DNA from: SAR202 cluster bacterium
GTDB taxonomy: Bacteria; Chloroflexota; Dehalococcoidia; Lucifugimonadales; GCA-2712585
Assembly (NCBI GenBank): GCA_016872285.1
Contig: VGZZ01000001.1
Coordinates: 101,536-165,535 of the forward strand
DNA: 64,000 nt
Direction: 5' to 3'
In this document: positions 9,975 to 63,145 of the stretch, one piece after another
How positions within the stretch are numbered: the stretch's first letter is position 1
How the letters are laid out: each line of letters begins with the position of its first letter
Notes under the pieces: generated by a model
What the model was told of the DNA's origin: nothing
The model's database searches: none
What the model saw: only the letters and a program-made list of their open reading frames with translations
Made by a program: the position numbers and the translations under genes

Positions 9975-10146
9975 GGTTCTCCCCCTTCGGCCTGGAAGAG
10001 CTCCGCTACCTTAAAGCATATATCGCGGAGTCCGATGCAATAGGACCGTCCTGAGTATGCCGAAGGAGTGGGTTGTGGTTCCTTACTTCTCTTCCCCTTC
10101 CAGCAGGAAGGGGACAAAGGGGATGGTATCCCGATTTAAGACAGGC
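9975..10146 (+). repeat. Mosaic hairpin repeat R1 (D module + C module)
   Basis: The D module contains CTCCCCCTTCGGC...CTCCGC-N18-GCGGAG...GTCCGATGCAATAGGAC...GCCGAAGGAG. It is followed by CTTCCCCTTCCagcaGGAAGGGGAcaaaGGGGATGGTATCCC. Near-identical to 32371-32480. Confidence 0.85.
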
Positions 10147-10212
10147 CTCACCTCCAAAGCCAAACATAGCCCAAGATGATAGTTTCCCCACCCCCTGTGC
10201 TAAAATACCCCC

Positions 10213-10701
10213 GTGGCCTCATCCAAGCTAATCTATTCGGAAAAACACCGCAGCGCCCTCATAACCACCCTTCTGGGCCTCCTGGGCCTGGCTTTGATAA
10301 TCATAGCCCTCGTGGCCGCCGGCATGTCCGCTGTGGGGACCCGAGACCTCTGGAGTGACGCCGCCTTTTCCCTTGCTCTGGGCTTAGTTCTGGCAGGCAG
10401 CCACTGGTTCTTGGTGCCGCGAGAATATCAAGTTTACAGCGACCGCCTCGTTGTCACCTATGGTCGTCCCCGCATCCTCTCCGTCCCTTTCGACAACGTA
10501 GCCAGCGTCGACGTGCTTACCCACCCTCTGGGGACCGAGCTTCGAATACGACGCGCCCGTGGCAGGACTCTGCTATTGCAGCCCCTAGGCCCCAAACAGT
10601 TCCACCAAGCCCTGCAAGATGCCCTCTCAAAATCTGGAGTTGCGCCTAAAAATCCCATCCCCTCTTCGCAGGGCTTCCCGCCCACCAACCCCAAAAGCTA
10701 G
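10213..10701 (+). CDS. Membrane protein with bacterial PH-like (DUF304-like) C-terminal domain
   Basis: Two predicted TM helices followed by a small beta-rich domain. GTG start. Weak family assignment. Confidence 0.4.
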   Translation: MASSKLIYSEKHRSALITTLLGLLGLALIIIALVAAGMSAVGTRDLWSDAAFSLALGLVLAGSHWFLVPREYQVYSDRLVVTYGRPRILSVPFDNVASVDVLTHPLGTELRIRRARGRTLLLQPLGPKQFHQALQDALSKSGVAPKNPIPSSQGFPPTNPKS

Positions 10702-11360
10702 CCCTCCCTCCTAGCGCGCACCACGTAGGTACCAGCCATTTTGTCGTGCCACCCTTGCTTCCTCCCATCTAACGCCGCCCACACGTACCCAAACCCCAAC
10801 GTTAACTCTGAAACTATCTTTCCGGGAACTTCTCTTACAAATGCTGTGCCAACGCTGGGCTGTTGTCCGTTCCGATCCACCACCTTAGCCCCCACCAGCA
10901 TCTTTCCAGGCGTCGTCCCCTTGAAGCCGATAAACAGTGTATTGTAGACCCACCTCACAGCTAGTGCGATAAAAAAGCCCAGGCCAAAACCAATGCCCTC
11001 ATCAGTGACCGCGACTGCTAGACCCAAAAACCCCAAAACAACAGTCTGTATGACAAATAGAATGACTCCGTCCACTATCGCCGCCACCAGCCGGATCCAG
11101 AACCCCATGTATTCCGCCCCCGCCGCTTCCGGGACCGTCGTTGGTTCCGCCGATGCAGCCTGCGACGGCGGCGTCACTAGCAACTTGCCGCAGCTCGCGC
11201 AGTACAGCGCATCCCACGGACTTACCACGCCGCACGCCGGGCACGTCACCGGCTCCTGCGACACCGGCTGAGGCTCTAGGTACGCCAGCCACACTCCGCA
11301 TCCCACGCACCTCCACTTGCCCCGTCCATTTGACAATCCGCATCTACGGCACCCTGTCAT
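10698..11360 (-). CDS. RDD-family membrane protein with two N-terminal zinc ribbons
   Basis: CRRCG...CVGCG and CPACG...CASCG ribbons, then an RDD-like TM domain (GFWIRLVAAIVDGVILFV). Confidence 0.7.
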   Translation of the reverse strand: MTGCRRCGLSNGRGKWRCVGCGVWLAYLEPQPVSQEPVTCPACGVVSPWDALYCASCGKLLVTPPSQAASAEPTTVPEAAGAEYMGFWIRLVAAIVDGVILFVIQTVVLGFLGLAVAVTDEGIGFGLGFFIALAVRWVYNTLFIGFKGTTPGKMLVGAKVVDRNGQQPSVGTAFVREVPGKIVSELTLGFGYVWAALDGRKQGWHDKMAGTYVVRARREG

Positions 11361-15201: not shown

Positions 15202-15417
15202 CTATTCTTTCTCCTCTGACAACGTCACCTTTAACGGCAAACCTTTAATATTGATCATTCCTAATGTCGAGAAGTCAAGTAATCTGCCCTTTGAATCTAT
15301 TTTCTTCATTACCCTATCGTCCTCGGTCTCTTGAAAGTAACCCTGATGTCGCTCAAGAACGACTTCTAAGAAGTCTCCCTCAGAGTCATACCACACTTCT
15401 ATCAGCTTTTTGGTCAT
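15202..15417 (-). CDS. DUF2283-family small protein
   Basis: 71 aa ([15 protein letters not shown]...[15 protein letters not shown]). Visibly AT-richer than its neighbours. Confidence 0.55.
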
Positions 15418-15529
15418 GTTTATTTATATGAAGACCTCGCGTTGCCTACCCTCTTCCTTCTTTCTCTCTTGAATGCCTGGTGCTAATTTTGGATTGAGAT
15501 GAACAAAAGGTGTGATGGCCCCCAAGGAA

Positions 15530-15650
15530 ATCCCTTCTCCCCTTGTAGGAGAAGGCGCAGGTCGAAGACTCGCCGTGGCGAGATGAGGGGGAAGCCCTAG
15601 AGACGCAATACGAATAGCAGAGCTAACAATCCTCTTGTTTCTTTCACTCA
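15530..15650 (+). repeat. F-family repeat F1
   Basis: CCCTTCTCCCCTTGTAGGAGAAGGCGCAGG...GATGAGGGGGAAGCCCTAGAG. Confidence 0.7.
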
Positions 15651-15680
15651 GCATTTAAGCTCTATTATATCTAACGTCCG

Positions 15681-20214: not shown

Positions 20215-20394
20215 TCGGATTTTCTCCTTGCTACAGACTAATTTTAACCGTCATGCCGCGCTTCCGATGGATTGTAGCAACTTGAAAGGCACAACAACAA
20301 GTTTGGCAGAGCTATATGTAGCTCCACTGCTACAAAAGGCGGGTGTTCGCTTAAGATGCTAAGCGACGGGAAGTTAGCTCTCTGATATCCCTTT

Positions 20395-20710
<316 letters not shown>

Positions 20711-23018: not shown

Positions 23019-23071
23019 CGGTTTTCTCTGCTGTTGCCTAGCCCTTTCAGGCCGCTTCACATTGAATAGAT

Positions 23072-23185
23072 AAGGAGAAGCGGGGGATAGAGGGTGATGA
23101 GGTGGTCCTTATTTTCCTTCCCTCTTCTCCCGACTACGGGAGAAGAGGGACAAAGGGTGATGAGGGCGCCCCGATTAAAGACCAG
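23072..23185 (+). repeat. Mosaic hairpin repeat R3 (B module)
   Basis: GGGTGATGAGGTGGTCC...CCCTCTTCTCCCgactacGGGAGAAGAGGGacaaaGGGTGATGAGGGCG. Confidence 0.85.
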
Positions 23186-23235
23186 GTATTTATTTTGCAT
23201 CACGCGTTTGCGTGTGGGGAGTTAGGAAGGGGGTC

Positions 23236-26377: not shown

Positions 26378-26530
26378 GTCATTCCGGGCGGCAAACTCGA
26401 TGTACTCATCGGGACGCAGTTGAGCACCTTTACTTGACTATTCAATCGCGAAATCCCGATGTTAATCGGGTCGAGGAATCTGTTATGACGGTAACCTCGA
26501 TTGTCATCTCACTGACACGACCCGGGTCTC
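26378..26530 (+). repeat. E-family repeat E1
   Basis: GTCATTCCGGGCGG...CATCGGGACGCAGTTGAGC and AAATCCCGATGTTAATCGGGTCGAGGAATCT. Related to the GTCATTCTGAGCG...GAAGAATCT copies. Confidence 0.65.
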
Positions 26531-27510: not shown

Positions 27511-27644
27511 CTTTACCGATATGCGGCAATAATACTCAATACATCTGCGTTTTCAGGATGCTAACATTCCATTCATATACTGTCAAAGCCGTGCAATCAG
27601 AGTGCAAAATGACAACTCAGGGTTAAGGTCCCATCTACTCAAGT

Positions 27645-45344: not shown

Positions 45345-45510
45345 GCGGGGATAGGAGTCTCCTCAGGTCCTCCCCCTTCGGTCCGGAAGAGCCTGTCCCG
45401 AGTATCCCCCGAGGGACTAAGGGTGATGAGGGTACCCCGCTTATGACCGGGACTGTATTATCAATCACACACCAACGTGAAGGGGCCAGGGGATGGTATA
45501 CCATACTGCG
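45345..45510 (+). repeat. Mosaic hairpin repeat R9 (degenerate D/B/C modules)
   Basis: CTCCCCCTTCGGTCCGGAAGAGC, CCCGAGTATCCCCCGAGGGactaaGGGTGATGAGGGTACC and GGGGATGGTATACC. Confidence 0.7.
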
Positions 45511-46773: not shown

Positions 46774-46845
46774 TGTCACGTCATTTCGAGCGTAGTCGAG
46801 AAATCTCAACGTGCCGAACGCCACTATTACACCTCATTTCAGTTG
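46774..46845 (+). repeat. E-family repeat E3, directly after the PIN/TRAM gene stop
   Basis: GTCACGTCATTTCGAGCGTAGTCGAGAAATCTCAACGTGCC. Confidence 0.75.
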
Positions 46846-46986
46846 CCAGTACCCCTTAAATTCATGTAGGGGCGATATCGCTCCACCATCGCGATTCTTC
46901 ATACAATGTGGAGGCTCAATTTATCGGCCCTCGCCCTTCCACCTATTTGCGTCCATTAAGCCCGTGTGTTAGGAGGCTCCTGCTAA

Positions 46987-47749: not shown

Positions 47750-47797
47750 TTTTCCTTTCTCCTCCTTGATGGGGGAGAATAGAAGAGAGGGTGAAAC
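47750..47797 (+). repeat. Short hairpin repeat R10 (G-family)
   Basis: TTCTCCTCCttgatGGGGGAGAAtAGAAGAGAGGGTGAAAC. Related to 50093-50145. Confidence 0.65.
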
Positions 47798-47911
47798 ACT
47801 AGCTCTACGCTCCGTCCGCCAGGCTAGGCCACTCCTAACCCCGCGGAACGTTCTCTTCCTCTCCTCACCTTCCCCCCAAACCTTAGGACCACTCGTCGAA
47901 GGCCCCCGCTA

Positions 47912-48391
47912 ATGACCCTCCGCGTAGGCTCAGGCCTCGACGCCCACCCCCTGGTCGCAGGGCGACGCCTCGTCCTCGGCGGCGTCCCCATCCCCCACGA
48001 AAAAGGCATCCAGGGCCACAGTGACGGCGACGTCGCCGTCCACGCCATCATGGACGCCCTCCTGGGCGCCGCCGGCCTCGGCGACAAGGGCAAGCACTTC
48101 CCCTCCACAGACCCCACACTAAAGGGCATATCCAGCCTCATCCTCCTCCAGCGCGTCGGCGCCCTCGTCCGGGAGCGAGGTTGGCGCATCGTGAACGTGG
48201 ATGCTACAATACTCGCCCAGCGGCCGCGTCTGAGTCCCTTCGTGGAGCAGATGCGAAAAAACGTCTCCCGAACGCTCAGCGTCGGCCCTGAAATTATCAG
48301 CATCAAAGCTACTACAACCGATAATCTGGGCTTTACGGGTCGAGGGGAAGGTATCGCCGCCCACGCCGTAGCCCTCATCGAGACCGTTTAA
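47912..48391 (+). CDS. ispF: 2-C-methyl-D-erythritol 2,4-cyclodiphosphate synthase
   Basis: RVGSGLDAHPL and HSDGDVAVHA motifs. Its stop overlaps the cysS start (TAATG). Confidence 0.95.
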   Translation: MTLRVGSGLDAHPLVAGRRLVLGGVPIPHEKGIQGHSDGDVAVHAIMDALLGAAGLGDKGKHFPSTDPTLKGISSLILLQRVGALVRERGWRIVNVDATILAQRPRLSPFVEQMRKNVSRTLSVGPEIISIKATTTDNLGFTGRGEGIAAHAVALIETV

Positions 48392-49875: not shown

Positions 49876-49975
49876 CCCCTTCCCCTTTGGGGTGGTGCTG
49901 TAGTGTGAGGAGTAAAATCATTCCGACCGTAGGGGAGGAGTCTCAACACCCGTTCACATCTTCACTTCACCTTCG
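49876..49975 (+). repeat. E-family repeat E4, starting at the first base after the cysS stop
   Basis: CCCCTTCCCCTTTGGGGTGGTG...ATCATTCCGACCGTAGGGGAGGAGTCTCAACACC. Confidence 0.75.
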
Positions 49976-49993
49976 CTGCTTAGGTAGCGTTAT

Positions 49994-50075
49994 ATCATTC
50001 TGAGCGAAGTCGGTACTCCGACGCAGTCGAAGAATCTGGCCCAGCTGCAGATCGACTTCGGCCATTTAGTAGCGA
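49994..50075 (+). repeat. E-family repeat E5
   Basis: TCATTCTGAGCGAAGTCGGTACTCCGACGCAGTCGAAGAATCTGG. Nearly identical core to 58895-58940. Confidence 0.8.
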
Positions 50076-50092
50076 CGACAAGCCAGAAGTCT

Positions 50093-50145
50093 TCCTTCCC
50101 TCCTACTTGAGGGGGAGAACAGAAGAGGAGGGTCAAAGGTCCCTT
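50093..50145 (+). repeat. Short hairpin repeat R11 (G-family)
   Basis: TTCCCTCCtacttgaGGGGGAGAAcAGAAGAGGAGGGTCAAAG. Confidence 0.65.
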
Positions 50146-50225
50146 CCCCATGCCCTCTCCTTCCCTCCCTCTCCCCTCAATGCTACCCTTTCCCCAGCAC
50201 ACTAGCCTTCAAAGGGAGCCCACCC

Positions 50226-50642
50226 ATGAAAATGCTAGACGAATTCAAAAAATTTCTCCTCCGCGGCAACGTCATCGACCTGGCCGTGGCCGTTGTTATC
50301 GGCGTCGCCTTCGGCGCCGTCATTACATCCTTCGTCAAAGACCTCCTCACCCCCCTGATCAGCATCCCCGGCAACGCCGACTTCTCTAGCCTCACCTTCA
50401 CCATCAACGGCAGCGTCTTTCGATACGGTTCCTTCATCAACGCCCTCATCGCCTTCATACTCATCGCCGCCGCTATCTTCTTCCTCGTCGTGAAGCCAGT
50501 TAACGCCCTCGTCGAGCGCTCCCGCGCCGCCCCAGTCCCCGCCGACCCCACCACTCGCAAGTGCCCCGAGTGCCTCAGCGAAATCCCCCTCGCCGCCAAA
50601 CGCTGCGCCCACTGCGCCTCACCAGTATCGCCTGTGGCCTAA
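50226..50642 (+). CDS. mscL: Large-conductance mechanosensitive channel with C-terminal zinc-ribbon extension
   Basis: MKMLDEFKKFLLRGNVIDLAVAVVIGVAFG N-terminus and a C-terminal CPEC...CAHC motif. Confidence 0.9.
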   Translation: MKMLDEFKKFLLRGNVIDLAVAVVIGVAFGAVITSFVKDLLTPLISIPGNADFSSLTFTINGSVFRYGSFINALIAFILIAAAIFFLVVKPVNALVERSRAAPVPADPTTRKCPECLSEIPLAAKRCAHCASPVSPVA

Positions 50643-50656
50643 AGGAATCCTCCCCT

Positions 50657-52042
50657 ATGCTTAATCGCGATGTCCTCGCCTCCCTCACCACCCTCCTGGG
50701 CCGCTCCCGCGTCCTCACCTCCCTACCCCAACGCGAGCGCTACTCCGCCGACGCCCTCTCCCCCTCCCGCGCCTACCGCTCCGCCCAACTGCTCAACTCT
50801 ACCGCCGATGTCGTTGTCCGGCCCAAAAACACCCAGCAGGTAGCCGAAATCGTCAAGCTCGCCGTGCAGCACCGCATCCCCATCATTCCCTACGGTGGCG
50901 GCACCGGCGTCATGGGCGGCGTAGTGCCCCTTAAGGGTGGCATTGCCATCGACCTCCAGGGCCTCAACAAAGTCCTAAACATAGACCCTATTTCCCTCAC
51001 CGCCACCGTCGAGTCCGGCGTTATCCTCGCCGACCTCGCCCACGTCCTGGAAGGCCAGGGCCTCCTCCTCGCCCACGACCCCTGGAGCCTCCCCATCGCC
51101 ACCGTCGGCGGGGCCATATCCACCAACGGCGTCGGCTACCGCGCCGCCGCCTACGGCCCCATGGGCGACCACGTCCTCGGCCTGGAAGTTGTCCTCCCAG
51201 ACGGCGAACTCCTCACCACCCGCGCCGTCCCCAAGTACTCCACCGGCCCCAACCTCAACCAGCTCTTCATCGGCTCGGAAGGCGCCTTCGGCATCATCAC
51301 CAAGGCCACCATAAAAATCCTCCGACAGCCTGAAGAGCGCATCTTCTCCACCTTCCGCTTCCAAAAATTCGACCAGGGCTTCCAAGCCATCACCGAGCTT
51401 TTAGCCATCGGCCTTGTCCCCTCAGTCCTTGACCTGACCGAGGACTTTGAAGGCGTCCACTTATATCTAATCTTCGAGGGCTATAAAGAGGGCGTCGATG
51501 CCCAGCGCCGCCGCTCCAAGCTGGTCTGCGAAGCCGCCGGCGGCATCGACAACGGCCCCACCGAGGCCACCATCTACTGGGACACCCGCTACCGCATCGC
51601 CGAAGGCTACCGCGACGAAGTCGCCTCCCTCACCCGCCGCCAGCGATGGAAGCGCCATAGCCGCTCCTTCGATTACCTCCACGTCGCCCTGCCCCTGGAC
51701 AAAGTTCCAAGCTACCGCAAGAAGTGCGACGCCATCTTCAAAAAGTACGATATCCGGTGTAGCGAATACGGCATCTGGGCCCGCCCCGAACTCTTCTCCA
51801 TGCTCCTCCTCCCTGGGGATGTCACCAAGGAAGAGGACATGCCTAAAGCCGTTGACATGGTCTTAACACTGGCCCAGGACATGGGCGGCGTCATGGAGTA
51901 TTGCCACGGCGTCGGCATCAAGCTGGCCCACCTCCTCGCCCGAGAGATGGACGTCAGTCTCGACGTCTTGGGTAACATGAAGTGCTCCCTTGACCCCCAT
52001 AACATCATGAACCCCGGCAAGCTAGGTCTCGACAAAGCGTGA
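50657..52042 (+). CDS. FAD-linked oxidase (GlcD / PCMH-fold family)
   Basis: FAD-binding PYGGGTGVMGG motif. Start is the ATG at 50657; the upstream extension overlaps mscL. Confidence 0.85.
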   Translation: MLNRDVLASLTTLLGRSRVLTSLPQRERYSADALSPSRAYRSAQLLNSTADVVVRPKNTQQVAEIVKLAVQHRIPIIPYGGGTGVMGGVVPLKGGIAIDLQGLNKVLNIDPISLTATVESGVILADLAHVLEGQGLLLAHDPWSLPIATVGGAISTNGVGYRAAAYGPMGDHVLGLEVVLPDGELLTTRAVPKYSTGPNLNQLFIGSEGAFGIITKATIKILRQPEERIFSTFRFQKFDQGFQAITELLAIGLVPSVLDLTEDFEGVHLYLIFEGYKEGVDAQRRRSKLVCEAAGGIDNGPTEATIYWDTRYRIAEGYRDEVASLTRRQRWKRHSRSFDYLHVALPLDKVPSYRKKCDAIFKKYDIRCSEYGIWARPELFSMLLLPGDVTKEEDMPKAVDMVLTLAQDMGGVMEYCHGVGIKLAHLLAREMDVSLDVLGNMKCSLDPHNIMNPGKLGLDKA

Positions 52043-53937: not shown

Positions 53938-54984
53938 CTAGACAAAGTAGCGGACGCGTGTTTTTTTGTACTCGCGGTTGCTATATAGAATGAGATAGTC
54001 GTGGATGTCGGTAGCCCTTTCAATCTCTTTGACGGCGTCTTCACAGCCTTCTTTGGAGACGGCGTGAATCATGGTGAAATGCGTGTAGGGCCAGTCCGGG
54101 AAGGTGGGGCGCTGATAGCAATGAGTGACGCCTGTATGCCGGGCCATTATCTTGCCCACGGCCTCGGCGCGGTCTTCAGGCACCTTCCAAACAGCCATGG
54201 CGTTGGCGCGGAAGCCAGCCTTTCGATGGTAGAGGACGGCGCTGTAACGGCGCATTATGCCGCGGTCCTGGAACTCCTTGGCCAGGTCGAAGAGCTGTTG
54301 GTTGGTAAGGCCCAGGCGTCGGGCCATATTGTCGAAGGGGCGGGGAATCATGGGCAGGTCTTCCTGCAGTTCCTGGATAGCGCGGATGTCGAAGTCGCTG
54401 AGATGGACAGGCTTGTTCCAGTCCTTGGAGATGGGCTGGTTATAGCCGTCGGGGCTGTAGTCGAAAGCCGCGCTCTTCTGGCTCACCATGTCAAAGTTGA
54501 CGCCGATTTTGAAGAACCGAATGGTGGGCATGACGCGGAACGCTTGGGCGCCGGTCTTTTCCGCCATCTGTTTTACGGTGTCTTCCAGCACCTCGTTGGG
54601 CGGCACCGCCAGGGTAAACCAGAGGTTGTAGAAGGAACCTTCTCGGGCGTAGTTGTGGCTGACGCCTGGGTGCCGATTGATATATAGGGCGGACTTGTGC
54701 AGCCTGTCGGCGTGGTAGGCCATAGCGACGAGGGTAGTCTTGTAGCCCAGGCGGCGGGTGTCGAAGATGGCGCTGATCTGGCGGACAACATTGGCTTTTC
54801 GGAGGGCGGCCAGGCGAATGAAGAGTTCGGCTTCGGAGATGCCCAGTTCACCTGCAATGACCTTATACGGCTCGTCGGCCAGGGGAAATCGAGACTGGGT
54901 GATATTAAGGAACTGACGGTCGGTGGCGTCCATGTCGCCGGCGGACTTCTTGCCGGAGGCGGGTTTAAGGGTCTGCTGGGCCAT
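53938..54984 (-). CDS. Siroheme decarboxylase-like protein (fused AhbA/AhbB or NirD/NirL type, two Lrp/AsnC-like modules)
   Basis: About 348 aa with two tandem HTH + ligand-domain modules. The ATG at 54984 follows GAGGTGA. Confidence 0.7.
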   Translation of the reverse strand: MAQQTLKPASGKKSAGDMDATDRQFLNITQSRFPLADEPYKVIAGELGISEAELFIRLAALRKANVVRQISAIFDTRRLGYKTTLVAMAYHADRLHKSALYINRHPGVSHNYAREGSFYNLWFTLAVPPNEVLEDTVKQMAEKTGAQAFRVMPTIRFFKIGVNFDMVSQKSAAFDYSPDGYNQPISKDWNKPVHLSDFDIRAIQELQEDLPMIPRPFDNMARRLGLTNQQLFDLAKEFQDRGIMRRYSAVLYHRKAGFRANAMAVWKVPEDRAEAVGKIMARHTGVTHCYQRPTFPDWPYTHFTMIHAVSKEGCEDAVKEIERATDIHDYLILYSNREYKKTRVRYFV

Positions 54985-55163
54985 TATCACCTCAGGTGGG
55001 GTATTCGAGCGTAGATGGGCGTCGCCCGGGACTATTTTATCAGACTTAATCTTTCATGAATGTACTGGCGATGATTGTGAAAGTCAACACAATGTCATGA
55101 TTAACCGGGACGCGATTGGGGTGTTACAATCGGGGCGTGAGCACCGACCCACAGAGGGGAGCT

Positions 55164-55634
55164 ATGAACATTCCAGGCCAGAAGCGAAGCCTGGAGCCGG
55201 ATGACTGCGGGCTGACCGCCGGTAGGTTCGCCGAAGCGATTCGGGACGGGGATATGGCGGCGGCTTGGAATGTGCTGTCGAAAGAGTCCAGGGGGGTGAG
55301 GTTGGGGGTGTGGGCCACCCAGAACAAGATCGACCTGCAGGTGGTGTACAGAGCGGCCTACGATTCGAACCATCCGCTATTCGCACCTATGATGGAAGGA
55401 TTTCGGGCGGCGGTGTTGAAGCACTGGCCCCTGGAGGACCTGGGCGATCTCGGTGTAGCCCCGACAAGCTACGTGGACGACGTCCACGCCTTTGTGTTTT
55501 TGCCCATCGGCGTGGGGAGAGACCAGCAGGTGCAGGAGCAGAGGACCGTGAAGCCCGGGCTGGTGATACCCATGCTGTTTGAGGACGGCGAGTGGCGGGT
55601 GGATATGCCGGGCTGGCGTTTTTTCTGGAAGTAG
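55164..55634 (+). CDS. Hypothetical protein
   Basis: ORF in the G-rich block. The ATG at 55164 has an SD-like GAGGGGAG. An in-frame GTG at 55137 lies 6 nt after a TGnTACAAT box and is an alternative start. Confidence 0.4.
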   Translation: MNIPGQKRSLEPDDCGLTAGRFAEAIRDGDMAAAWNVLSKESRGVRLGVWATQNKIDLQVVYRAAYDSNHPLFAPMMEGFRAAVLKHWPLEDLGDLGVAPTSYVDDVHAFVFLPIGVGRDQQVQEQRTVKPGLVIPMLFEDGEWRVDMPGWRFFWK

Positions 55635-55639
55635 GCCGT

Positions 55640-55648
55640 TGATATACT
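55640..55648 (+). promoter_or_regulatory. Candidate extended -10 box abutting the pcm start
   Basis: TGaTATACT, with the GTG start at 55655 only 6 nt downstream. Confidence 0.35.
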
Positions 55649-55654
55649 GGATTT

Positions 55655-56326
55655 GTGGAAAAGCTTAACAACGCAAGGCAGCGCCTGTTCAGAAAGCTGC
55701 GACAGGTTATAAGGTACGAGCGGGTGCTGCGGGCCATGGAGCAGATGCCCCGCCAAGCCTTTGTGCCCGAGAATCTGCGGCATCTATCCTACGACGACGC
55801 CCCCCTGCCCATCGGTGAGGGACAGACCATCTCCCAGCCCACCATCGTGGCTATTATGACCGGTGCCCTGGAACTGCGGGACAAGGATAGGGTGCTGGAG
55901 GTGGGAACGGGCAGCGGCTACCAGTCGGCCATACTGTCGCTTCTGGCGTCCGAGGGGTGGGTAGTGAGCGTGGAGAGGGTACCGTGGCTGGCGGAGAAGG
56001 CCGCGTCTATCCTGCGCTCCTTGGGCCGCCATAATGTAGAGGTGGTGGAGGCTGGGCCGGTGTTAGGCTGTCCTGAGAAAGGGCCCTACGACGCGATTGT
56101 AGTGACGGCGGCCAGTCCCAGGCTGCAGAAGTCTCTGCTGGACCAGATGAAGCTGGGAGGTCGGCTGGTGGCGCCGGTAGGAGGGCTGAAGGAGCAGGAG
56201 TTAGTGAGGGCGCTCAAGACCAGCGAGGGCATATCGATAAGCTATCTGTGGCCGTGCCGGTTTGTGCCGCTGATCGGGCCTGAGGCGTGGCCGGAGGGCA
56301 TGGCGGGAGCCGCAGACGAAGCCTAG
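55655..56326 (+). CDS. pcm: Protein-L-isoaspartate O-methyltransferase
   Basis: GQTISQPTIVAIM and the SAM motif VLEVGTGSGYQSAIL. GTG start. Confidence 0.9.
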   Translation: MEKLNNARQRLFRKLRQVIRYERVLRAMEQMPRQAFVPENLRHLSYDDAPLPIGEGQTISQPTIVAIMTGALELRDKDRVLEVGTGSGYQSAILSLLASEGWVVSVERVPWLAEKAASILRSLGRHNVEVVEAGPVLGCPEKGPYDAIVVTAASPRLQKSLLDQMKLGGRLVAPVGGLKEQELVRALKTSEGISISYLWPCRFVPLIGPEAWPEGMAGAADEA

Positions 56327-56352
56327 GTTTCATTGCCGCTATAATAGAGCGC

Positions 56353-56361
56353 TGATATACT
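56353..56361 (+). promoter_or_regulatory. Candidate extended -10 box upstream of gatB
   Basis: The same TGaTATACTGG motif as at 55640. The ATG at 56382 has no obvious SD. Confidence 0.3.
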
Positions 56362-56381
56362 GGTTCGAGTCCAAAAACTAT

Positions 56382-57860
56382 ATGGTCACCTCAGTTTTAG
56401 AGAAATACGAGGTCGTCATAGGGCTGGAGGTGCATGTCCAGCTCAAGACCAGGAGCAAAATGTTCTGCTCCTGCCGCGCCGACTATCAGACCGCCTCGCC
56501 CAACACCCTGGTCTGCCCCGTGTGCCTGGGGCTGCCGGGCACACTGCCGGTCATCAATCGTAGGGCGGTGGAGTTCACTATGGCCACCGGACTGGCGCTG
56601 AACTGCGAAATCGCGCCCACCACAAAATTCGACCGCAAGAACTACCCATACCCCGACCTCATGAAGGGCTATCAGATATCGCAGTACGACTCGCCCATCG
56701 CCACGAAGGGGCTTCTGGAGATTGAAAGCGACAGTGGCAAAAAGAAGGTGGGCATCACGCGAGTCCATCTGGAAGAGGACGTGGCCAAGCTGCAGCACGT
56801 CAACAACCCCCACGGCGAGAGTTTCAGCCTCGTAGACGTGAACCGCTCGGGCGTGCCGCTGATGGAGATAGTGGGCGAGCCGGACATCCGGTCGGCGGAG
56901 GAGGCCCGGCAGTATTTGACCACGCTGCGCTCCATACTCCAGTACATCGGCGTCACCACCGGCAACATGGAGGAGGGGAGCTTCCGGTGCGACGCCAACG
57001 TGAGCATTCGGCCCAAAGGAAGCAGCGCCTTCGGCACCCGGACGGAAATCAAGAACATGAACAGCTTCCGTTCGGTGTACAACGCCCTTTTATATGAGGT
57101 CGACCGCCAGGCTAAAGTCCTGGACGACGGCGGACGGGTGGTGCAGGAGACCAGGGGGTGGGTGGACGATAAGGGCGTTACCGTGTCCCAGCGTTCCAAA
57201 GAGCACGCCCACGACTATCGTTATTTCCCTGAGCCTGACCTGCCTCCCCTGGTAATAAGCCGGGAGTGGGTCAGCCTGGTAAAGGCCAGCCTGCCTGAGC
57301 TTCCCTCCCAGCGCCGGGACAGATTCGTGGGCCAGTACGGACTGCCGCTATACGACGCGGAGCATCTCACGTCTTCTAAGGATGTGGCGGACTTTTTTGA
57401 ATCGGCTGTCGCCAAGGGCGGGCAGTCCAGGGCCAAGTCCATCAGCAATTGGATGCTGAGCGACGTGACCAGGGTCTTAAATCTGAAGGGCCAGTCGCTG
57501 GGGGAGTCTGCGTTCAAGCCGGACCACCTGTCGGAGCTGGTGGAGTTGATCGAGTCGGGAACGCTGAGCAACACCCTGGCCAAGACGGTACTGGAAGAGG
57601 GGTTCGAGAGTGGCAAGCCGCCCTCGCAAGTGGTCAAAGAGAAGGGGCTGGCGCAAATCAGTGACACGTCCGTGGTGGAAGCAGCGGTGCAGCAGGCCAT
57701 AAGCGAGAACCCCAAGGCCGTGGAGGATTACATAAAGGGCAAGGACACGGCGTCCAGGTTCCTAGTGGGGCAGGTGATGAGGCTCACCAGGGGGAAGGGC
57801 AACCCCACCGTGGTGAATGAACTGGTGAAAAAGGGCCTGGAGGCCCTGAAGTCTAGCTAA
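56382..57860 (+). CDS. gatB: Asp/Glu-tRNA amidotransferase subunit B
   Basis: YEVVIGLEVHVQL N-terminus and a C-terminal YqeY-like domain. Confidence 0.95.
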   Translation: MVTSVLEKYEVVIGLEVHVQLKTRSKMFCSCRADYQTASPNTLVCPVCLGLPGTLPVINRRAVEFTMATGLALNCEIAPTTKFDRKNYPYPDLMKGYQISQYDSPIATKGLLEIESDSGKKKVGITRVHLEEDVAKLQHVNNPHGESFSLVDVNRSGVPLMEIVGEPDIRSAEEARQYLTTLRSILQYIGVTTGNMEEGSFRCDANVSIRPKGSSAFGTRTEIKNMNSFRSVYNALLYEVDRQAKVLDDGGRVVQETRGWVDDKGVTVSQRSKEHAHDYRYFPEPDLPPLVISREWVSLVKASLPELPSQRRDRFVGQYGLPLYDAEHLTSSKDVADFFESAVAKGGQSRAKSISNWMLSDVTRVLNLKGQSLGESAFKPDHLSELVELIESGTLSNTLAKTVLEEGFESGKPPSQVVKEKGLAQISDTSVVEAAVQQAISENPKAVEDYIKGKDTASRFLVGQVMRLTRGKGNPTVVNELVKKGLEALKSS

Positions 57861-57871
57861 AGAGGTATCTT

Positions 57872-58087
57872 TTGGAAACGGCGATAGATATAGTTCAGAT
57901 TCTTGTCTCCACCATCCTGGTCATCGTCATACTGCTGCAGGTTAGGGAGATGGGCACCGGCCTTTTCGGCTCCGCCACGGCGGCTTTCCGAGTGCGCAGG
58001 GGCATCGAGAAGACGCTCTTTCAGATGACTATAGTGCTGGTGGCCGTGTTTGTGGTGGTATCGATTTTGAGCGTACGGTTGAATTAA
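57872..58087 (+). CDS. secG: Preprotein translocase subunit SecG
   Basis: 71 aa with two TM helices around a Gly-rich loop (GTGLFGSATAAF). TTG start. Confidence 0.8.
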   Translation: METAIDIVQILVSTILVIVILLQVREMGTGLFGSATAAFRVRRGIEKTLFQMTIVLVAVFVVVSILSVRLN

Positions 58088-58172
58088 AGGACCGCCTGGC
58101 TTTTCACGCGAAACCAGCGCCTCTTTAATCGAGGCGATATCCCGGCTTATGAGTGATTAGCGCGCCCGTAAT

Positions 58173-58181
58173 TGCTCTAAT
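58173..58181 (+). promoter_or_regulatory. Candidate extended -10-like box abutting a sirC start candidate
   Basis: TGcTCTAAT, with the in-frame ATG at 58189 lying 7 nt downstream. Confidence 0.25.
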
Positions 58182-58188
58182 GCGAATT

Positions 58189-58860
58189 ATGACTAGCCCT
58201 AAAACCCAAAATCTCCCCTCCTACTACCCTGTCTTCCTGGACCTCACCGGCCGTCCATGCGTCGTCATCGGCGGCGGCGCCGTGGCCGAAGGCAAGGTCC
58301 AAGGCCTCCTCCACCACAACTGCCCCATCACCCTTGTCAGCCCCACCGCCACCGCCGCCCTCAAAGACTGGGCCGCAAAGGGCCGTATACAATGGCTCCA
58401 GCGCGAGTACCAGCCCGGCGACCTCAAAGACGCCTTCCTCGCCATCGCCGCCACCGACCAGCGGAGTGTCAACGACGCCGTAGCTAAAGAAGCCGCCGCC
58501 GAAAAAGTCCTCCTCAACGTCGTGGACTATCCTCCCCTCTGCGTCTTTATCGCCCCCGCCGTGGTCAAACGCGGCCCCGTCACCTTCGCCATCTCCACCT
58601 CCGGCGCCAGCCCCGCCCTCGCCCGCAAGCTCCGCGAGTCCCTGGAACAAAGCGACATCCTCCCCTACGCCGACCTCGCCCCCCTCCTAATGCGCGCCCG
58701 CCTCGAAATCAAAAAACAAGGGCTAAAAGTCCACCCCGACCGGTGGCAAGAAGCCCTGAATCATGACCTTCTCCGGCTAGTCCAGCAAGGCCACGAAGAC
58801 CAGGCCTTTGACCGACTTATGTCTACCCTGACCTCCAAATCGAAAGGTCGCGCTAGATGA
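58189..58860 (+). CDS. Precorrin-2 dehydrogenase / sirohydrochlorin ferrochelatase (SirC / CysG N-terminal type)
   Basis: YPVFLDLTGRPCVVIGGGAVAEGKV Rossmann motif. The start is uncertain (in-frame candidates at 58153, 58180 and 58189). 58189 lies 7 nt after a TGCTCTAAT box. Confidence 0.8.
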   Translation: MTSPKTQNLPSYYPVFLDLTGRPCVVIGGGAVAEGKVQGLLHHNCPITLVSPTATAALKDWAAKGRIQWLQREYQPGDLKDAFLAIAATDQRSVNDAVAKEAAAEKVLLNVVDYPPLCVFIAPAVVKRGPVTFAISTSGASPALARKLRESLEQSDILPYADLAPLLMRARLEIKKQGLKVHPDRWQEALNHDLLRLVQQGHEDQAFDRLMSTLTSKSKGRAR

Positions 58861-58894
58861 TCACGGCTCTCGTTACCAACCAACAAGACTATTC

Positions 58895-58950
58895 TGTCAT
58901 TCTGAGCGGAGCCGGTACTCCGACGCAGTCGAAGAATCTGCTACGCGTGG
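58895..58950 (+). repeat. E-family repeat E6
   Basis: GTCATTCTGAGCGGAGCCGGTACTCCGACGCAGTCGAAGAATCTGC. Confidence 0.8.
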
Positions 58951-59032
58951 AACCCCGTTGTGAGTGCGTCGCTCACCGCCTCACAAAACCAATTTCTCAG
59001 CGTTGCCTTCTATTGCTCCAGGTCACTACCCC

Positions 59033-59950
59033 ATGACCCCCCTCATCGTCGGCACCCGAGGCTCCCGCCTCGCCCTCATCCAGACCGAAGAAGCCCTAGC
59101 CCTAATCCGCGCCAAACACCCCGCCCAAGCCTTCGATATCAAGACCATCCGCACTGGCGGCGACAAAGCCCCCGACGTTCCCCTTGCCTCTCTTGGCCGG
59201 GGCGTCTTCGTCAAAGAGATCGAAGACGCCCTCCTCCGCAAGGAAATCGACCTCGCCGTCCACAGCCTCAAAGACCTCCCGCCCGTCACGCCTCCCTGCC
59301 TCGCCATCGCCGCCATCACCCAGCGCATCGACCCCCGCGACGTCCTCGTCAGCAAAGAAAACGTGACCCTGGACAAGCTCCCGCCAGGCGCTCGAATCGG
59401 CACCAGCAGTCCCCGCCGCACCGCCCAGCTCCGCCGCCTCCGGCCCGACCTCCAGGCCCTCCCCATCCGTGGTAACGTGGACACTCGAGTCAACAAAGCC
59501 TTCGGCCCTGACTACGACGGCGTTATTCTCGCCGCCGCTGGCCTCATCCGCCTCGGCCTCCAGTCCAAAATCTCCCAGTACTTCTCTGCAGAAGAGTTTA
59601 TCCCCGACCCCGGCCAGGGCGCTCTGGCTATCGAAGTACGCCAGGACGACAACCACACCCTCGCCCTCCTCAAGACCATCGACCATTCCCCCACTCGGCG
59701 CGCCGTCACCGCCGAGCGCGCCTTCCTCGAAAAGCTCGGCATGGGTTGTAGCAGCCCCTCCGCCGCCTACGCCCGCGTCAGCGGCGACAGCATAATCATG
59801 TATGCCCTCCTCGCCTCGCCTGACAGCGCCCAGTCCTTCACCACCAAGGCCCGCGGCAACCCCGATAACCCCCGCGAGCTCGCCGCCGAAGCCCTCCAGC
59901 GCCTCATAGAAAAAGGCGCCGCCAAACTTTTCTCCCCAGAAAAACAGTAG
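59033..59950 (+). CDS. hemC: Hydroxymethylbilane synthase (porphobilinogen deaminase)
   Basis: IVGTRGSRLALIQT N-terminus. Start is the ATG at 59033; the upstream extension covers a repeat. Confidence 0.95.
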   Translation: MTPLIVGTRGSRLALIQTEEALALIRAKHPAQAFDIKTIRTGGDKAPDVPLASLGRGVFVKEIEDALLRKEIDLAVHSLKDLPPVTPPCLAIAAITQRIDPRDVLVSKENVTLDKLPPGARIGTSSPRRTAQLRRLRPDLQALPIRGNVDTRVNKAFGPDYDGVILAAAGLIRLGLQSKISQYFSAEEFIPDPGQGALAIEVRQDDNHTLALLKTIDHSPTRRAVTAERAFLEKLGMGCSSPSAAYARVSGDSIIMYALLASPDSAQSFTTKARGNPDNPRELAAEALQRLIEKGAAKLFSPEKQ

Positions 59951-60088
59951 AACCCTACTGCTGTTACAATTCACTTATGAAACTCGCTTCTTGCATCAAG
60001 CCAACTTCCTTCTTTCGCCTTCCCTTATATGCCTAGTGTTAGTTGAGGTTTGAGGCCCTAACATGAGGATTGAAGGCTTCCCCGGCAA

Positions 60089-60190
60089 TTCCTTCTCCCC
60101 TTGTGGGAGAAGGCGCAGGTTTAGGGGTGAATCCCTAGGAACACGATTCTTTATCAATGCCACCTGCTGCGCTGCGTTTATCCCTTTCCT
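60089..60190 (+). repeat. F-family repeat F2 (upstream of cobA-hemD)
   Basis: CCTTCTCCCCTTGTGGGAGAAGGCGCAGGTTTAGGGGTGAATCCCTAGGAACACGATTCTTTATCAATGCCACCTGCTGCGCTGCG. Confidence 0.85.
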
Positions 60191-60232
60191 CGCTCGGCAA
60201 AAGAGGGGTAGGAAGGGGGCAATCCTATCCCC

Positions 60233-61762
60233 ATGACCCCTACTCCAGCGCTCATCTCCCTCGTCGGCGCCGGCCCTGGCGACCCCGGGCTCATCACCGC
60301 CAAAGGCCTCCACCGCCTCCGCCAGGCCGACGTCATCGTCTACGACCGCCTCATCGACAAAGCCATCCTCAAAGAGGCCCGCCCCGACGCACAGCTTATC
60401 TACGTCGGCAAAGACCCTACCCCAGGCGCCGCTGCCGGCCAGGAAGACATCTTCCCGCTGCTAATAGATAAGGCCCGCGAAGGCAAGCGCGTCGTCCGGC
60501 TAAAAGGTGGCGACCCATTTGTCTTCGGCCGCGGCGGCGAGGAGGCCCAGGTCCTCGCCATGGCTGGTATCCCCTTCGAAATCATCCCCGGCGTCACCTC
60601 CGCCATCGCCGCCCCCGCCTACGCCGGAATTCCTGTCACCCACCGCGACGCCGCCTCCTCCTTCACTGTCGTCAGCGCCGTGGAAGACCCAGCAAAAGAA
60701 AAGTCCGCCATCAACTGGCAAGCCCTCGCCCAGACCGGCGGCACGCTAATCGTCATGATGGGCTGGTCTGCCCTGCCTAAAGTCGTCGAACGCCTCCTTA
60801 AAGAAGGCATGAAGCCCTCCACCCCCGTCGCCCTGGTCGAGTGGGGCACCTACCCTAAACAGCGCACCGTCACCGCCACCCTGAAAGACATTGTCCGACG
60901 AGGGCAGGATGCCGGCCTCGGCCCGCCTGTCGTCGCCGTCATCGGCCAGGTGGTCAACCTCCGCGACGACATCGCCTGGTTCGACAACCGCCCCCTCTCC
61001 GGCCTTCGAGTCCTCGTCACTCGCTCCCGCCAGCAGGCCTCTGTGTTATGTCAACTCCTCGCCCAGGAAGGCGCCGACCCCATCGAGCTTCCCGCCATCG
61101 AGATCGCCCCTCCCCAGTCCTTCGACGCCCTGGACTCCGCCCTCCGACGCCTCTCCCAATATCAGTGGGTCGTCTTCACCAGCGTTAACGGCGTCGATGC
61201 CTTCTTTGGCCGACTTCATGCCCTCGGCCTGGACAGCCGCGCCCTGGGCGGTGTCAGACTTTGCGCCATCGGTCCCGCCACTGCTTCCGCCCTCCAAAAA
61301 TTTGGCCTCCATGCCGACCTCGTCCCCCCCGAGTTCACCTCCAATGCTCTTTCCCAGTCCCTCGGTCATGCCGCCAAAGACTCCCGCGTCCTCCTTCCCC
61401 GCACCGACATCGCCCCCCTGGACCTTGTCCAAGCCCTGGAGCAGTCCGGCGCCACCGTTGACCAAGTCATCGCCTATCGCACCCTCGTACCCGCTTCCTC
61501 CAAAGAAACCGCTCTACGGCTTCTATCCAGTGGTAAAATAGACGCCGTCACCTTCACCAGTTCCTCCACAGTTAACAATCTAATCGAGCTTCTTAACGGC
61601 AACTCCGGCCTCCTTGCGGGCAAACTCATCACCTCCATAGGCCCCATCACCTCCCGTACTGCCCGTGACCGCGGCCTCACCGTCGATGTAGAAGCCCCTA
61701 TACATACAGTGGAAGGCCTGGTGGAAGCTATGAAAGCATATTTAGCCAGGGTAAAAGGATAA
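60233..61762 (+). CDS. Fused uroporphyrinogen-III C-methyltransferase / uroporphyrinogen-III synthase
   Basis: The N-terminal SUMT domain has LVGAGPGDPGLIT. The C-terminal half is HemD-like. Confidence 0.9.
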   Translation: MTPTPALISLVGAGPGDPGLITAKGLHRLRQADVIVYDRLIDKAILKEARPDAQLIYVGKDPTPGAAAGQEDIFPLLIDKAREGKRVVRLKGGDPFVFGRGGEEAQVLAMAGIPFEIIPGVTSAIAAPAYAGIPVTHRDAASSFTVVSAVEDPAKEKSAINWQALAQTGGTLIVMMGWSALPKVVERLLKEGMKPSTPVALVEWGTYPKQRTVTATLKDIVRRGQDAGLGPPVVAVIGQVVNLRDDIAWFDNRPLSGLRVLVTRSRQQASVLCQLLAQEGADPIELPAIEIAPPQSFDALDSALRRLSQYQWVVFTSVNGVDAFFGRLHALGLDSRALGGVRLCAIGPATASALQKFGLHADLVPPEFTSNALSQSLGHAAKDSRVLLPRTDIAPLDLVQALEQSGATVDQVIAYRTLVPASSKETALRLLSSGKIDAVTFTSSSTVNNLIELLNGNSGLLAGKLITSIGPITSRTARDRGLTVDVEAPIHTVEGLVEAMKAYLARVKG

Positions 61763-61894
61763 AGGTTGAAACAGCCCAGTATATTCACAATTATTCCTTC
61801 GCCCTTTAGTAACGGTCAAGCGCAACGGGTCCTAAACCTGCCGAAGGTTCAACGAGGGGAGTTGGAACAGATGTACGAACGTCACCCAGGAACT

Positions 61895-61995
61895 GCCTTC
61901 TCCCCTTGTGGGAGAAGGCGTAGGATGAGGGGTGAATCCCTAGAAGCACAATGCTTTATCAATGCCACCTGCCATGCTGCGCTTATATCCCTCTC
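61895..61995 (+). repeat. F-family repeat F3 (upstream of hemB)
   Basis: CCTTCTCCCCTTGTGGGAGAAGGCGTAGGATGAGGGGTGAATCCCTAGAAGCACAATGCTTTATCAATGCCACCTGCCATGCTGCGC. A direct repeat of F2. Confidence 0.85.
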
Positions 61996-62031
61996 CAACA
62001 AGTGGAAAGGTTAGGGTGGAGGACGTAACCC

Positions 62032-63015
62032 ATGCCCACCTTCCCCCAGCTCCGCCTCCGCCGCCTCCGCGAAAACCCCACCCTGCGAGACATGGTGCGG
62101 GAGACCTACCTCTCCCCTCGAGACTTCATCTTCCCCCTCTTCGTTACCCACGGCCGCGATATCCGTGACGAAATCGCCCCCATGCCCGGCATCTACCACC
62201 TCTCCCTCGACAACCTTCTCACCGAGGTCAAGGAAGTCGCCGACCTCGGCATCCCAGGCGTCATCCTCTTCGGCCTCCCCGCCGAAAAAGACTCCTCTGG
62301 AAGTGAGGCCTATGACGACCACGGCATCATCCAGGAAGCTATCGGCGTCATCAAGCAGGCCACCCCTGACCTCCTCGTCATCACCGACGTCTGCCTCTGC
62401 GAATACACCAGCCACGGCCATTGCGGCGTCATCCACGACGGCGGCATCGACAACGACCGTACCCTGGAGCTCTACCAGCGTATCGCTATCTCCCACGCCA
62501 AAGCCGGCGCTGACGTTGTCGCCCCTTCAGGCATGATGGACGGACAGGTCAAAGCCATCCGCGGCGCTTTAGACCATGAGACCTTCCAGGACACCCCCAT
62601 TATGGCCTACGCCGCCAAACACGCCTCCGCCTTCTATGGCCCCTTTCGCACCGCCGCCAACTCCACCCCCCAATTCGGCGACCGCAAAAGCTACCAGATG
62701 GACCCCGCCAACCCTCGCATGGCCCTCCGTGAGATCGAGGCTGACATCGAAGAGGGCGCCGACATCATCATGGTCAAACCTGCTCTGGCCTATCTGGACG
62801 TTATCTCCAAGGCCCGCCAGAGCTTCGCCCCCCCCATCGCCGCCTACAACGTCAGCGGCGAGTACTCCATGATCAAGTCCGCCGCCGCCAACGGCTGGCT
62901 CGACGAGCGCTCCGCCACCCTCGAACTCCTCACCGGCATCAAGCGCGCTGGCGCAGATATCATCATCTCCTACCACGCCAAAGACGTCGCCCACTGGCTC
63001 AACTCCCGCCGCTAG
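62032..63015 (+). CDS. hemB: Porphobilinogen synthase (Zn-type)
   Basis: Cys-rich metal site DVCLCEYTSHGHCG. SD GGTGGAGGA lies upstream. Confidence 0.95.
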   Translation: MPTFPQLRLRRLRENPTLRDMVRETYLSPRDFIFPLFVTHGRDIRDEIAPMPGIYHLSLDNLLTEVKEVADLGIPGVILFGLPAEKDSSGSEAYDDHGIIQEAIGVIKQATPDLLVITDVCLCEYTSHGHCGVIHDGGIDNDRTLELYQRIAISHAKAGADVVAPSGMMDGQVKAIRGALDHETFQDTPIMAYAAKHASAFYGPFRTAANSTPQFGDRKSYQMDPANPRMALREIEADIEEGADIIMVKPALAYLDVISKARQSFAPPIAAYNVSGEYSMIKSAAANGWLDERSATLELLTGIKRAGADIIISYHAKDVAHWLNSRR

Positions 63016-63018
63016 CCT

Positions 63019-63145
63019 CACTGTCATTTCGAGCGAAGTCGAGAAATCTCAGCTTACTGTCCGCCACCATTACGTATGGCTACCAAGGCGTACTGGTTCC
63101 ATCCGCTACCGCCACACACCATTTATTATCAGTCACCCTGAGCCT
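63019..63145 (+). repeat. E-family repeat E7, directly after the hemB stop
   Basis: CTGTCATTTCGAGCGAAGTCGAGAAATCTCAGC...CCATTTATTATCAGTCACCCTGAGC. Confidence 0.75.

Follow-up and report, generated by a model that had tools for sequence, protein, structure and literature searches.

Two described systems come closest to the repeats considered here. One comprises the repetitive extragenic palindromic (REP) sequences and their composite forms, such as bacterial interspersed mosaic elements (BIMEs) and REPINs, with their Y1 transposases of the HUH type (RAYT, TnpA-REP). In Pseudomonas fluorescens SBW25, tandem REP arrays lie in opposite orientations on the two replichores (PMC3116915). The other is the IS200/IS605 family of insertion sequences together with its non-autonomous derivatives (PATEs); IS608 and ISDra2 go into the lagging-strand template, and their orientation is biased chromosome-wide (PMC3333891, PMC6006769, PMC3971601, PMC5027513). 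Here, we describe a set of hairpin repeats in a 64-kb stretch (the window; contig VGZZ01000001.1, positions 101,536 to 165,535) from a SAR202 cluster bacterium of the phylum Chloroflexota. All of them point the same way irrespective of the neighboring genes, and the same relation to local strand asymmetry recurs on other contigs. Our best reading, with a probability of about 0.5, is that they are non-autonomous elements resembling REP/BIMEs or IS200/IS605, whose insertion at replication forks is strand-specific.

In the window, 21 clear and 2 weak copies were found, forming 23 clusters in 20 intergenic gaps, and every one lies on the + strand. They are listed below, with the strands of the flanking genes given in left/right order; A, B and C are module types, and L numbers denote contigs other than the window.

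9971-10148, + strand: A1, a long outer hairpin around CTCCGC/GCGGAG and TCCGAT/ATCGGA hairpins, then a tail, an H2b hairpin and a GGGGATGGTATCCC tail; +/+ gap; 92% over 109 nucleotides (nt) to A6.
15502-15562, + strand: C1, a CCTTCTCCC/GGAGAAGG hairpin, a nested CTCGCC/GGCGAG hairpin and a G-rich tail; -/- gap.
20393-20637, + strand: A2, an H1a hairpin with nested modules in its loop, ending in the 53-nt C run; -/- gap; 91% over 173 nt to the L022 copy.
23066-23203, + strand: A3, H1-T1-H2a-T2a with the loop GACTAC; convergent gap.
26378-26480, + strand: B1 (weak), GTCATTCCGGGCG...GTCGAGGAATCT with a large nested insert including a CCCGAT/ATCGGG hairpin; -/- gap; without extended similarity to other copies.
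27619-27825, + strand: A4, H1a with an insert, T1, H2b with a nested TCCCGA/TCGGGA hairpin, and T2b; the sole divergent gap with an element.
29041-29180, + strand: A5, H1a-T1-H2b; +/+ gap upstream of ribD (true start near 29318).
32272-32336, + strand: B2, a short GTCATTTCGACCG...GAGAAATCT hairpin and tail, directly upstream of A6.
32365-32555, + strand: A6, two hairpins nested in a long outer one, followed by H2a (loop flipped, GTAGTC) and T2a; convergent gap ribBA/prfA.
33760-33863, + strand: A10, a variant hairpin with a nested CCCGAT/ATCGGG hairpin and a GATGAGGGG tail; -/- gap; 86% over 102 nt to the L019 copy.
34725-34752, + strand: a fragment of the CCTGAGCCTGGxCGAAGG module, found by similarity to the copy library; -/- gap.
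38053-38196, + strand: A7, H1a-T1-H2a-T2a-R; convergent gap TGT/ThiS; H2b/T2b instead at the orthologous site of L035.
42473-42707, + strand: A8 with an upstream U and a downstream R module (core 42516-42688 conserved), inserted into the hspR-clpC spacer; L035, L036 and L037 have an empty spacer at this site.
45292-45502, + strand: A9 array, a U module, head, truncated hairpin, T2a and a separate GGGGATGGTATACC tail; +/+ gap after clpC.
46776-46930, + strand: B3 and a further 33-nt module, in the PIN-ispD spacer.
47752-47792, + strand: C4, in the ispD-ispF spacer.
49917-50137, + strand: array of B4 (weak), B5 and C5, after cysS.
58897-58940, + strand: B6, between sirC and hemC, inside the heme operon.
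60060-60181, + strand: C2, between hemC and cobA/hemD.
61885-61986, + strand: C3, between cobA/hemD and hemB.
63018-63073, + strand: B7, convergent gap hemB/Ni-SOD.

The gene contexts of the 20 gaps cover every arrangement (+/+ nine, -/- five, convergent five, divergent one). Gene direction does not determine the orientation of the elements, which tracks strand asymmetry, and this confirms a reading of the window made earlier from its letters (the original prediction). A similarity library of 39 copies, drawn from the window and from metagenome loci, was run against the window and returned the 23 clusters, every one in the + orientation, whereas reverse matches never exceeded 38 nt; perfectly palindromic hairpins of 32-38 nt are the only element parts that also match in reverse. 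Similarity to other copies backs 21 of the 23 clusters, while B1 (26378) and B4 (49917) were recognized by a short motif only. All-against-all BLAST of the intergenic regions of the window gave 34 +/+ alignments (1321 nt) versus 5 +/- alignments (173 nt), and all five of the latter are perfect hairpins of 32-37 nt. Four motifs had been said to occur in the + orientation only, and so they do: two reverse matches, each of low quality with two mismatches, were set aside, one at 38323-38338 as a chance match inside the minus-strand ThiS-like gene, the other at 34630-34643 as a near-palindromic, uninformative 14-mer. The original prediction had also called 23 of 23 extremely improbable. The uniformity stands, but as the copies sit in 20 separate gaps, it is fairer to count gaps than to treat 23 events as independent, which gives a chance of ~2x10^-6 (two-sided). 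The elements occupy 18 of the 22 gaps of at least 180 nt, in line with the earlier remark that nearly every gap above about 180 bp is filled.

What is the strand asymmetry that the elements follow? G+C makes up 59% of the window, and the GC skew is about -0.2 almost throughout. Read on the + strand, the skew at third codon positions is -0.55 in + genes and -0.38 in - genes, with a strand-wide component of about -0.47, and coding DNA is split evenly between the strands (28.1 kb on +, 26.9 kb on -). Because the + strand is C-rich in genes of both strands, the asymmetry is strand-wide and of the sort ascribed to replication, not an effect of transcription. The elements had been said to match a uniform skew: they are indeed all in the + orientation on the C-rich strand, and the skew is uniform except in one block, where it reverses.

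53938-58087, no strand: inverted block with reversed skew, 4.2 kb, no element.

The third-position skew of this block is +0.03 to +0.41, versus about -0.5 elsewhere, and its genes are ahbAB-like, hypothetical, pcm, gatB and secG. A relative, L037, has SAM_HAT(-), secG(-), gatB(-) and pcm(-) in one run, on the strand opposite to that of the window block. Since L037 keeps secG-gatB-pcm on that strand beside SAM_HAT, the window block is a recent inversion; no inverted repeats were found flanking it. The elements themselves have a skew of +0.045 on the + strand, compared with -0.18 in other intergenic DNA and -0.21 in genes. They have thus not equilibrated with the strand bias and are young, homogenized or maintained.

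Does the rule hold elsewhere? A metagenome scan with the pattern T1-spacer-H2 returned 17 loci, 13 of which carry real elements; the other four (L021, L025, L027 and L032) were rejected as chance matches lacking any other module. Nine distinct loci remained after removal of duplicates, and with L035 they make 10, from close relatives. The metagenome loci match the window at the repeats only, so they represent other sites, probably of a sister species. Contigs have no fixed strand, so what counts is how the elements relate to local skew: the 10 loci hold 24 elements of the A, B and C types in ~19 gaps, all with the window + form on the locally C-rich strand, and the skew of the flanks is 0.15-0.4 in magnitude. 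Taking the window and the other loci together, ~39 of 40 independent gaps share one strand relation to local GC skew. A scan of genome contigs based on GTDB gave only 13 chance matches in unrelated taxa, the source genome being outside that collection.

One might suspect an assembly or sampling artifact, or a local duplication instead of a genome-wide rule, because the window comes from a metagenome-assembled contig, contigs often break inside the repeats, and the 53-nt C run by A2 resembles a sequencing artifact. This can be given hardly any credence: A7 recurs with its flanks, at 100% identity, in independent Logan and ENA contigs (L014-L016), the same orientation rule is seen at different sites in JGI contigs of other samples and a different species, and the copies are just 70-92% alike and lie in unrelated gaps.

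The unit of the repeat is a hairpin whose 5' arm is pyrimidine and whose 3' arm is purine, as in CCCCCTCTTCTCC..GGAGAAGAGGGGG, CCCTCTTCTCCCG..CGGGAGAAGAGGG, CTTCCCCTTCC..GGAAGGGGA or CCTTCTCCC..GGGAGAAGG, followed 3-5 nt on by a G-rich tail (GGGTGATGAGGTGATC, GGGTGATGAGGGYGCCC, GGGGATGGTATCCC, GGGGTGAATCCC; also GGGTGATGAGG..). A full A-type array consists of a head, TCTCCTCAGGT, two hairpin-tail units and an end, ..CCCGCTTAAGAC, often with extra upstream and downstream modules of ~35-70 nt each. Head and end are not mutually complementary, each end has a hairpin close by, and the copies were found to lack terminal inverted repeats. Hairpins are nested in the loops of others in A2, A4, B1, an H2b variant with TCCCGATGCAGTCGGGA, and the long outer stem of A1 and A6, which encloses CTCCGC..GCGGAG and TCCGAT..ATCGGA. 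Read on the G-rich strand, the unit becomes a conserved 5' motif (..CACCTCATCACCC; ..CATCACCC), then 3-5 nt, then the hairpin; the hairpins are 25-35 nt long, and what precedes each is the ..CATCACCC motif and not GTAG. All units in all arrays are direct, and similarity between the strands is limited to the palindromic stems.

Two kinds of loop stand out. In the CTCCGC/GCGGAG hairpin, the loop TTWAAGCATATATC hardly varies among copies of the window (10011-10032, 20443-20464 and 32410-32431) and of L017, L018 and L030, although the copies otherwise differ by 10-30%, which suggests a putative protein-binding site. The 6-nt loop of H2a comes in two versions, GACTAC and its reverse complement GTAGTC, which differ from copy to copy while the stems and flanks remain the same (23131-23136 versus 32506-32511 in the window; also L019, L022, L030 and L018). 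Such repeated loop flips are a signature of hairpin- or cruciform-mediated strand switching. Module types also stand side by side in arrays (B2 by A6; B4, B5 and C5 together; A beside C in L019). The original prediction spoke of at least three families; the A, B and C module types do exist, but judging from their shared modules and joint arrays they would more aptly be called a single mosaic system, built of nested hairpins that each carry a G-rich tail. For the same reason, independence has been counted per site and not per family.

Could the repeats act as RNA? Predicted folding is equally good for both strands (z about -4.9), and the asymmetry of G-U/G-T wobble pairs is uninformative as to which strand folds, because the mutation bias of the strand (G to A on +) gives the same pattern. 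Rfam at E values up to 1 returned no family match, only spurious miRNA-like matches on the hairpins, and a promoter and terminator scan gave no signal or consensus tied to the elements. A look through sequencing runs brought up no RNA run that contains the region. The repeats might be retroelements resembling short interspersed nuclear elements (SINEs), in which a structured RNA is reverse-transcribed and integrated at forks by means of nascent-strand primers, as in ectopic retrotransposition of group II introns. The strict strand bias, the multi-hairpin structure with compensatory changes and the lack of terminal inverted repeats would suit such an origin. We consider it improbable, since the Rfam search brought up no group II intron domain, the window proteins scanned contain no reverse transcriptase domain, no consistent promoter or terminator signals accompany the copies, and a mixture of mosaic, nested and truncated modules is unlike copies of one master RNA. 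Alternatively, the repeats may be independent small RNA genes or regulatory modules acting at the transcript level, co-oriented with replication against head-on collisions. Their strong predicted folds and the presence of several copies inside operons, where they would be co-transcribed, speak for this. It is nevertheless very unlikely: protein genes show no strand preference, so that collision avoidance is weak in this genome, the elements are antisense to both neighboring genes in five gaps, and the promoter, terminator and Rfam searches just mentioned were negative.

How do the elements compare with the systems introduced above? Like REP sequences and BIMEs, they are small, GC-rich hairpins, and a short conserved motif flanks the foot of the stem; they are present in high copy number, confined to the DNA between genes, mostly downstream of genes, and arranged in mosaic arrays with several subfamilies in one genome. 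REP units are imperfect palindromes of 20-40 nt with a GTAG-like tetranucleotide conserved on the 5' side of the stem foot; they often stand in inverted pairs, and their cognate RAYT gene is flanked by its own REPs (a REPtron). Unlike them, the elements have no GTAG-type tetranucleotide and are always direct, never forming inverted pairs of REP and inverted REP (iREP); their hairpins are nested, their orientation is locked to strand asymmetry at essentially every site, and no RAYT gene was found in the window or the fetched loci (~115 kb). With IS608, ISDra2 and PATEs they share asymmetric ends, subterminal hairpins and the absence of terminal inverted repeats, and here, too, no target duplication is evident. 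In the IS200/IS605 family, orientation is tied to replication, the active strand being inserted into the lagging-strand template (PMC3333891, PMC5027513, PMC3971601); a corresponding bias was found here (~39/40 gaps), with the identity of the active and lagging strands inferred. The differences are that no tnpA or tnpB was found in the window and fetched loci, no IS605 or omega-RNA family of Rfam is matched, the build is modular and nested in contrast to a fixed pair of left and right ends, a specific target tetra- or pentanucleotide, 3' of which IS200/IS605 elements insert without duplicating it, is not seen, and the bias is near 100%, whereas reported IS200 biases are strong but partial. A miniature inverted-repeat transposable element (MITE) of the DDE type was rejected as an identity, given the lack of terminal inverted repeats and of a duplication at the A8 site.

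Other small repeats resemble the elements in part. The BOX elements of pneumococci, ERIC, the Correia elements of Neisseria and the small non-coding repeats of Deinococcus are likewise mosaics of short modules with stem-loops, intergenic and often co-transcribed in operons; to our knowledge, none has been reported to be oriented by the replication strand. In Xanthomonas and Nostoc, G-rich heptamer repeats were explicitly found to favor neither the leading nor the lagging strand (PMC4692102). Chi, KOPS/SRS and Ter sites share with the elements an orientation tied to replication direction, but they are 8-23 nt long, mostly in genes or few, and immobile, while the elements here are structured, 40-250 nt long, and gained or lost between genes. 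No relevant literature was found on the B-type sequence or on repeats of Chloroflexota.

The original prediction, which pointed to elements moved by single-strand (HUH/Y1) transposases, is borne out in part. The insertion model, the best supported of those considered, can be outlined as follows. The elements would be non-autonomous REP/BIME-like mosaics whose unit is a hairpin with a short G-rich tail, and new hairpins would nest inside the loops of older ones. They would be integrated in a strand-specific manner at the replication fork, as is the case for IS608 and ISDra2, and such insertion would lock their orientation to the direction of replication independently of the neighboring genes. 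The model supposes that the skew marks the direction of replication, that orientation is set by insertion and not by later selection, that the enzyme is a single-strand nuclease of the Y1/HUH type encoded elsewhere in the genome, and that the active strand is the G-rich one, which would be the lagging-strand template. The G-rich strand is generally the leading strand. If that applies here, the lagging-strand template bears the 5' motif and then the hairpin, which is the layout of REP sequences and of IS200/IS605 ends. This layout is consistent with the model, but it had a one-in-two chance of being so. The loop flips and the nesting of hairpins in loops are also what one would expect if hairpins were extruded and then cut in single-stranded form.

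Several points weigh against this model. The 64-kb window and ~50 kb of element-bearing loci yielded no transposase, whether of the Y1/HUH type or of another: the window proteins scanned include no transposase, integrase or reverse transcriptase, in agreement with the original prediction for the window, and a crude six-frame scan for an HUH...Y motif in the window and the distinct loci found nothing. The REP hallmarks, a GTAG-type tetranucleotide and inverted unit pairs, are absent. The sole clean pair of empty and filled sites (the A8 site) shows no defined target sequence or cleavage site, the swapping of modules in the mosaics could be explained by recombination alone, and the direction of replication is read from the skew itself. 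Finally, there is a sole exception to the orientation rule, at 6870-6983 of L033, an ambiguous case at a contig end downstream of the G-rich ffh gene. The last 303 nt there are 97% identical to a conforming copy in L022; immediately upstream come another conforming copy and a tail fragment in inverted orientation. L033 (6620-7168) and L022 (819-1118), which are from sister samples, share these 303 nt, comprising half an element and its flank, and diverge inside the element, through either a rearrangement that broke within a repeat or a chimeric assembly. The exception may reflect a skew switch, an inversion, a chimeric assembly join or a real departure from the rule.

The main rival to strand-specific insertion is that selection maintains the orientation. 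Something polar in the elements (e.g., the G-tract tails, a putative G-quadruplex or a motif that binds protein) would be of use, or tolerated, on only one of the two template strands, much like a Chi, KOPS or Ter site or a signal for priming, and misoriented copies would be lost, for instance because a hairpin and a G-quadruplex on the lagging-strand template stall forks or are deleted. The asymmetric parts are G-rich on a G-poor strand, against the mutational grain, which suggests maintenance, and some loops and tails are very strongly conserved (e.g., TTTAAGCATATATC in all copies with the module). The orientation rule is near-absolute, stronger than the typical IS200 bias (PMC3971601), and elements and extreme skew co-occur in one lineage. 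Yet the A, B and C module types obey the same rule with unrelated tails, the B type even without G-tracts; the elements are dispensable at orthologous sites of close relatives; their intergenic-only, safe-haven sites are typical of selfish repeats, while Chi and KOPS lie mostly within genes; and no young misoriented copies are seen, though constant purging should leave some. On balance, selection on a polar function or toxicity appears unlikely, if well worth keeping in mind.

Relatives offer a view of gain and loss. The organism is a lake-water member of the Chloroflexota, and its nearest named ClpC relatives are SAR202-like Dehalococcoidia. L035, with 92% ClpC identity, is syntenic with the window and equally strongly skewed. 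Its hspR-clpC spacer is empty (34 nt), whereas that of the window contains A8, and its TGT-ThiS gap has an element in the place and orientation of A7 but with a different second unit, as listed above. More distant relatives (L036-L038; 65-75% amino acid identity, contigs of 0.6-2.4 Mb) keep the gene order, contain no elements and show no strand-wide skew, their mean third-position skew being near zero; in place of the hairpin repeats they carry insertion sequences of the IS3 family. Four spacers illustrate the difference.

hspR-clpC: 262 nt in the window; 18 and 13 nt in L036 and L037.
PIN-ispD: 213 nt in the window; 0 nt in L036 and L037.
ispD-ispF: 217 nt in the window; genes overlapping by 4 or 10 nt in the relatives L036 and L037.
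ribBA-prfA: 339 nt in the window; 48-50 nt in the relatives.

A further close relative, known from gene coordinates alone, has short gaps at the A2, A3 and B1 sites. Such short or empty orthologous junctions indicate recent, lineage-specific gains: the elements are mobile or recently gained. At the A8 pair (window 42462-42723 versus L035 6759-6792), no duplication was seen, the flanks being too diverged for exact junctions, and Logan contigs of four lake metagenomes, aligned across 20 kb, are fragments too short and thin for clean empty-site joints.

The elements and the extreme skew thus occur together, confined to one narrow lineage, of which the skew is a recent trait. In another reading, which we hold to be rather doubtful, the elements would be more than selfish DNA: they would be polar, replication-linked cis signals, in which a hairpin and G-tract load or guide a fork factor (for priming, fork restart or chromosome orientation), and would have arisen with the unusual replication or repair regime that causes the skew; or they would mark an undescribed system of single-strand transposition whose enzyme is not a known Y1 transposase.

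Small intergenic repeats of bacteria usually have no leading/lagging preference, whereas a near-absolute strand rule is seen here at ~40 independent sites. If this rule stems from insertion at forks, the lineage would be a natural, extreme case of single-strand transposition by non-autonomous elements, in a phylum in which such systems have not been described, and the hairpin-plus-tail units would be precise substrates for finding and testing the enzyme. The joint presence of repeats and strong skew in a narrow freshwater lineage, and their absence from the nearest relatives, offers a testable link: long-lived single-stranded template DNA may both raise deamination skew and admit single-strand mobile DNA. 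On the practical side, short-read assemblies of these abundant lake bacteria fragment at the repeats, whose orientation could serve to orient contigs relative to replication. Three traits make the case moderately interesting: how strictly the rule is obeyed, the nesting within the mosaics, and the pairing with an unusually strong skew in a freshwater lineage that is uncultured.

Some further features of the window touch individual copies. In the heme operon sirC-hemC-cobA/hemD-hemB (58153-63015), each of the three internal spacers holds an element, and B7 adds a fourth copy immediately downstream of hemB; since all four are in the sense orientation, at least the three internal copies are probably co-transcribed. 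The 53-nt C run beside A2 (20658-20710) starts where related copies read CCCGAGTAYCCCCC and is likely an artifact of two-color sequencing or of assembly, so that the join to lepB may be unreliable; poly-C loose ends of Logan contigs from four runs pile up at the same place, and the ino1-lepB spacer measures 538 nt in the window versus 177 nt in a close relative. Between the array of B4, B5 and C5 and the start of an FAD oxidase gene, 50138-50665 is ~530 nt of C-rich DNA with no recognized gene; the matching spacer is 125-170 nt in relatives, and the version in the window may hold more degenerate modules. Adjoining C1, between purQ and yqeY, two small minus-strand open reading frames (15202-15654; 70 and 75 amino acids) have a low G+C content at third codon positions (0.42-0.51) and no Pfam match; they may represent inserted foreign DNA, for instance a pair resembling a toxin and antitoxin. 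No tRNA genes were found in the window. Strong skew and high G+C content give rise to many long shadow reading frames: the one at 47824-48378(-) is the longest in its place but spurious, and the real gene is ispF (YgbB, E = 3e-66) at 47912-48391(+). Starts were also corrected for ribD (given with A5 above), for SIMPL to well after 27805 and for the FAD oxidase to near 50666.

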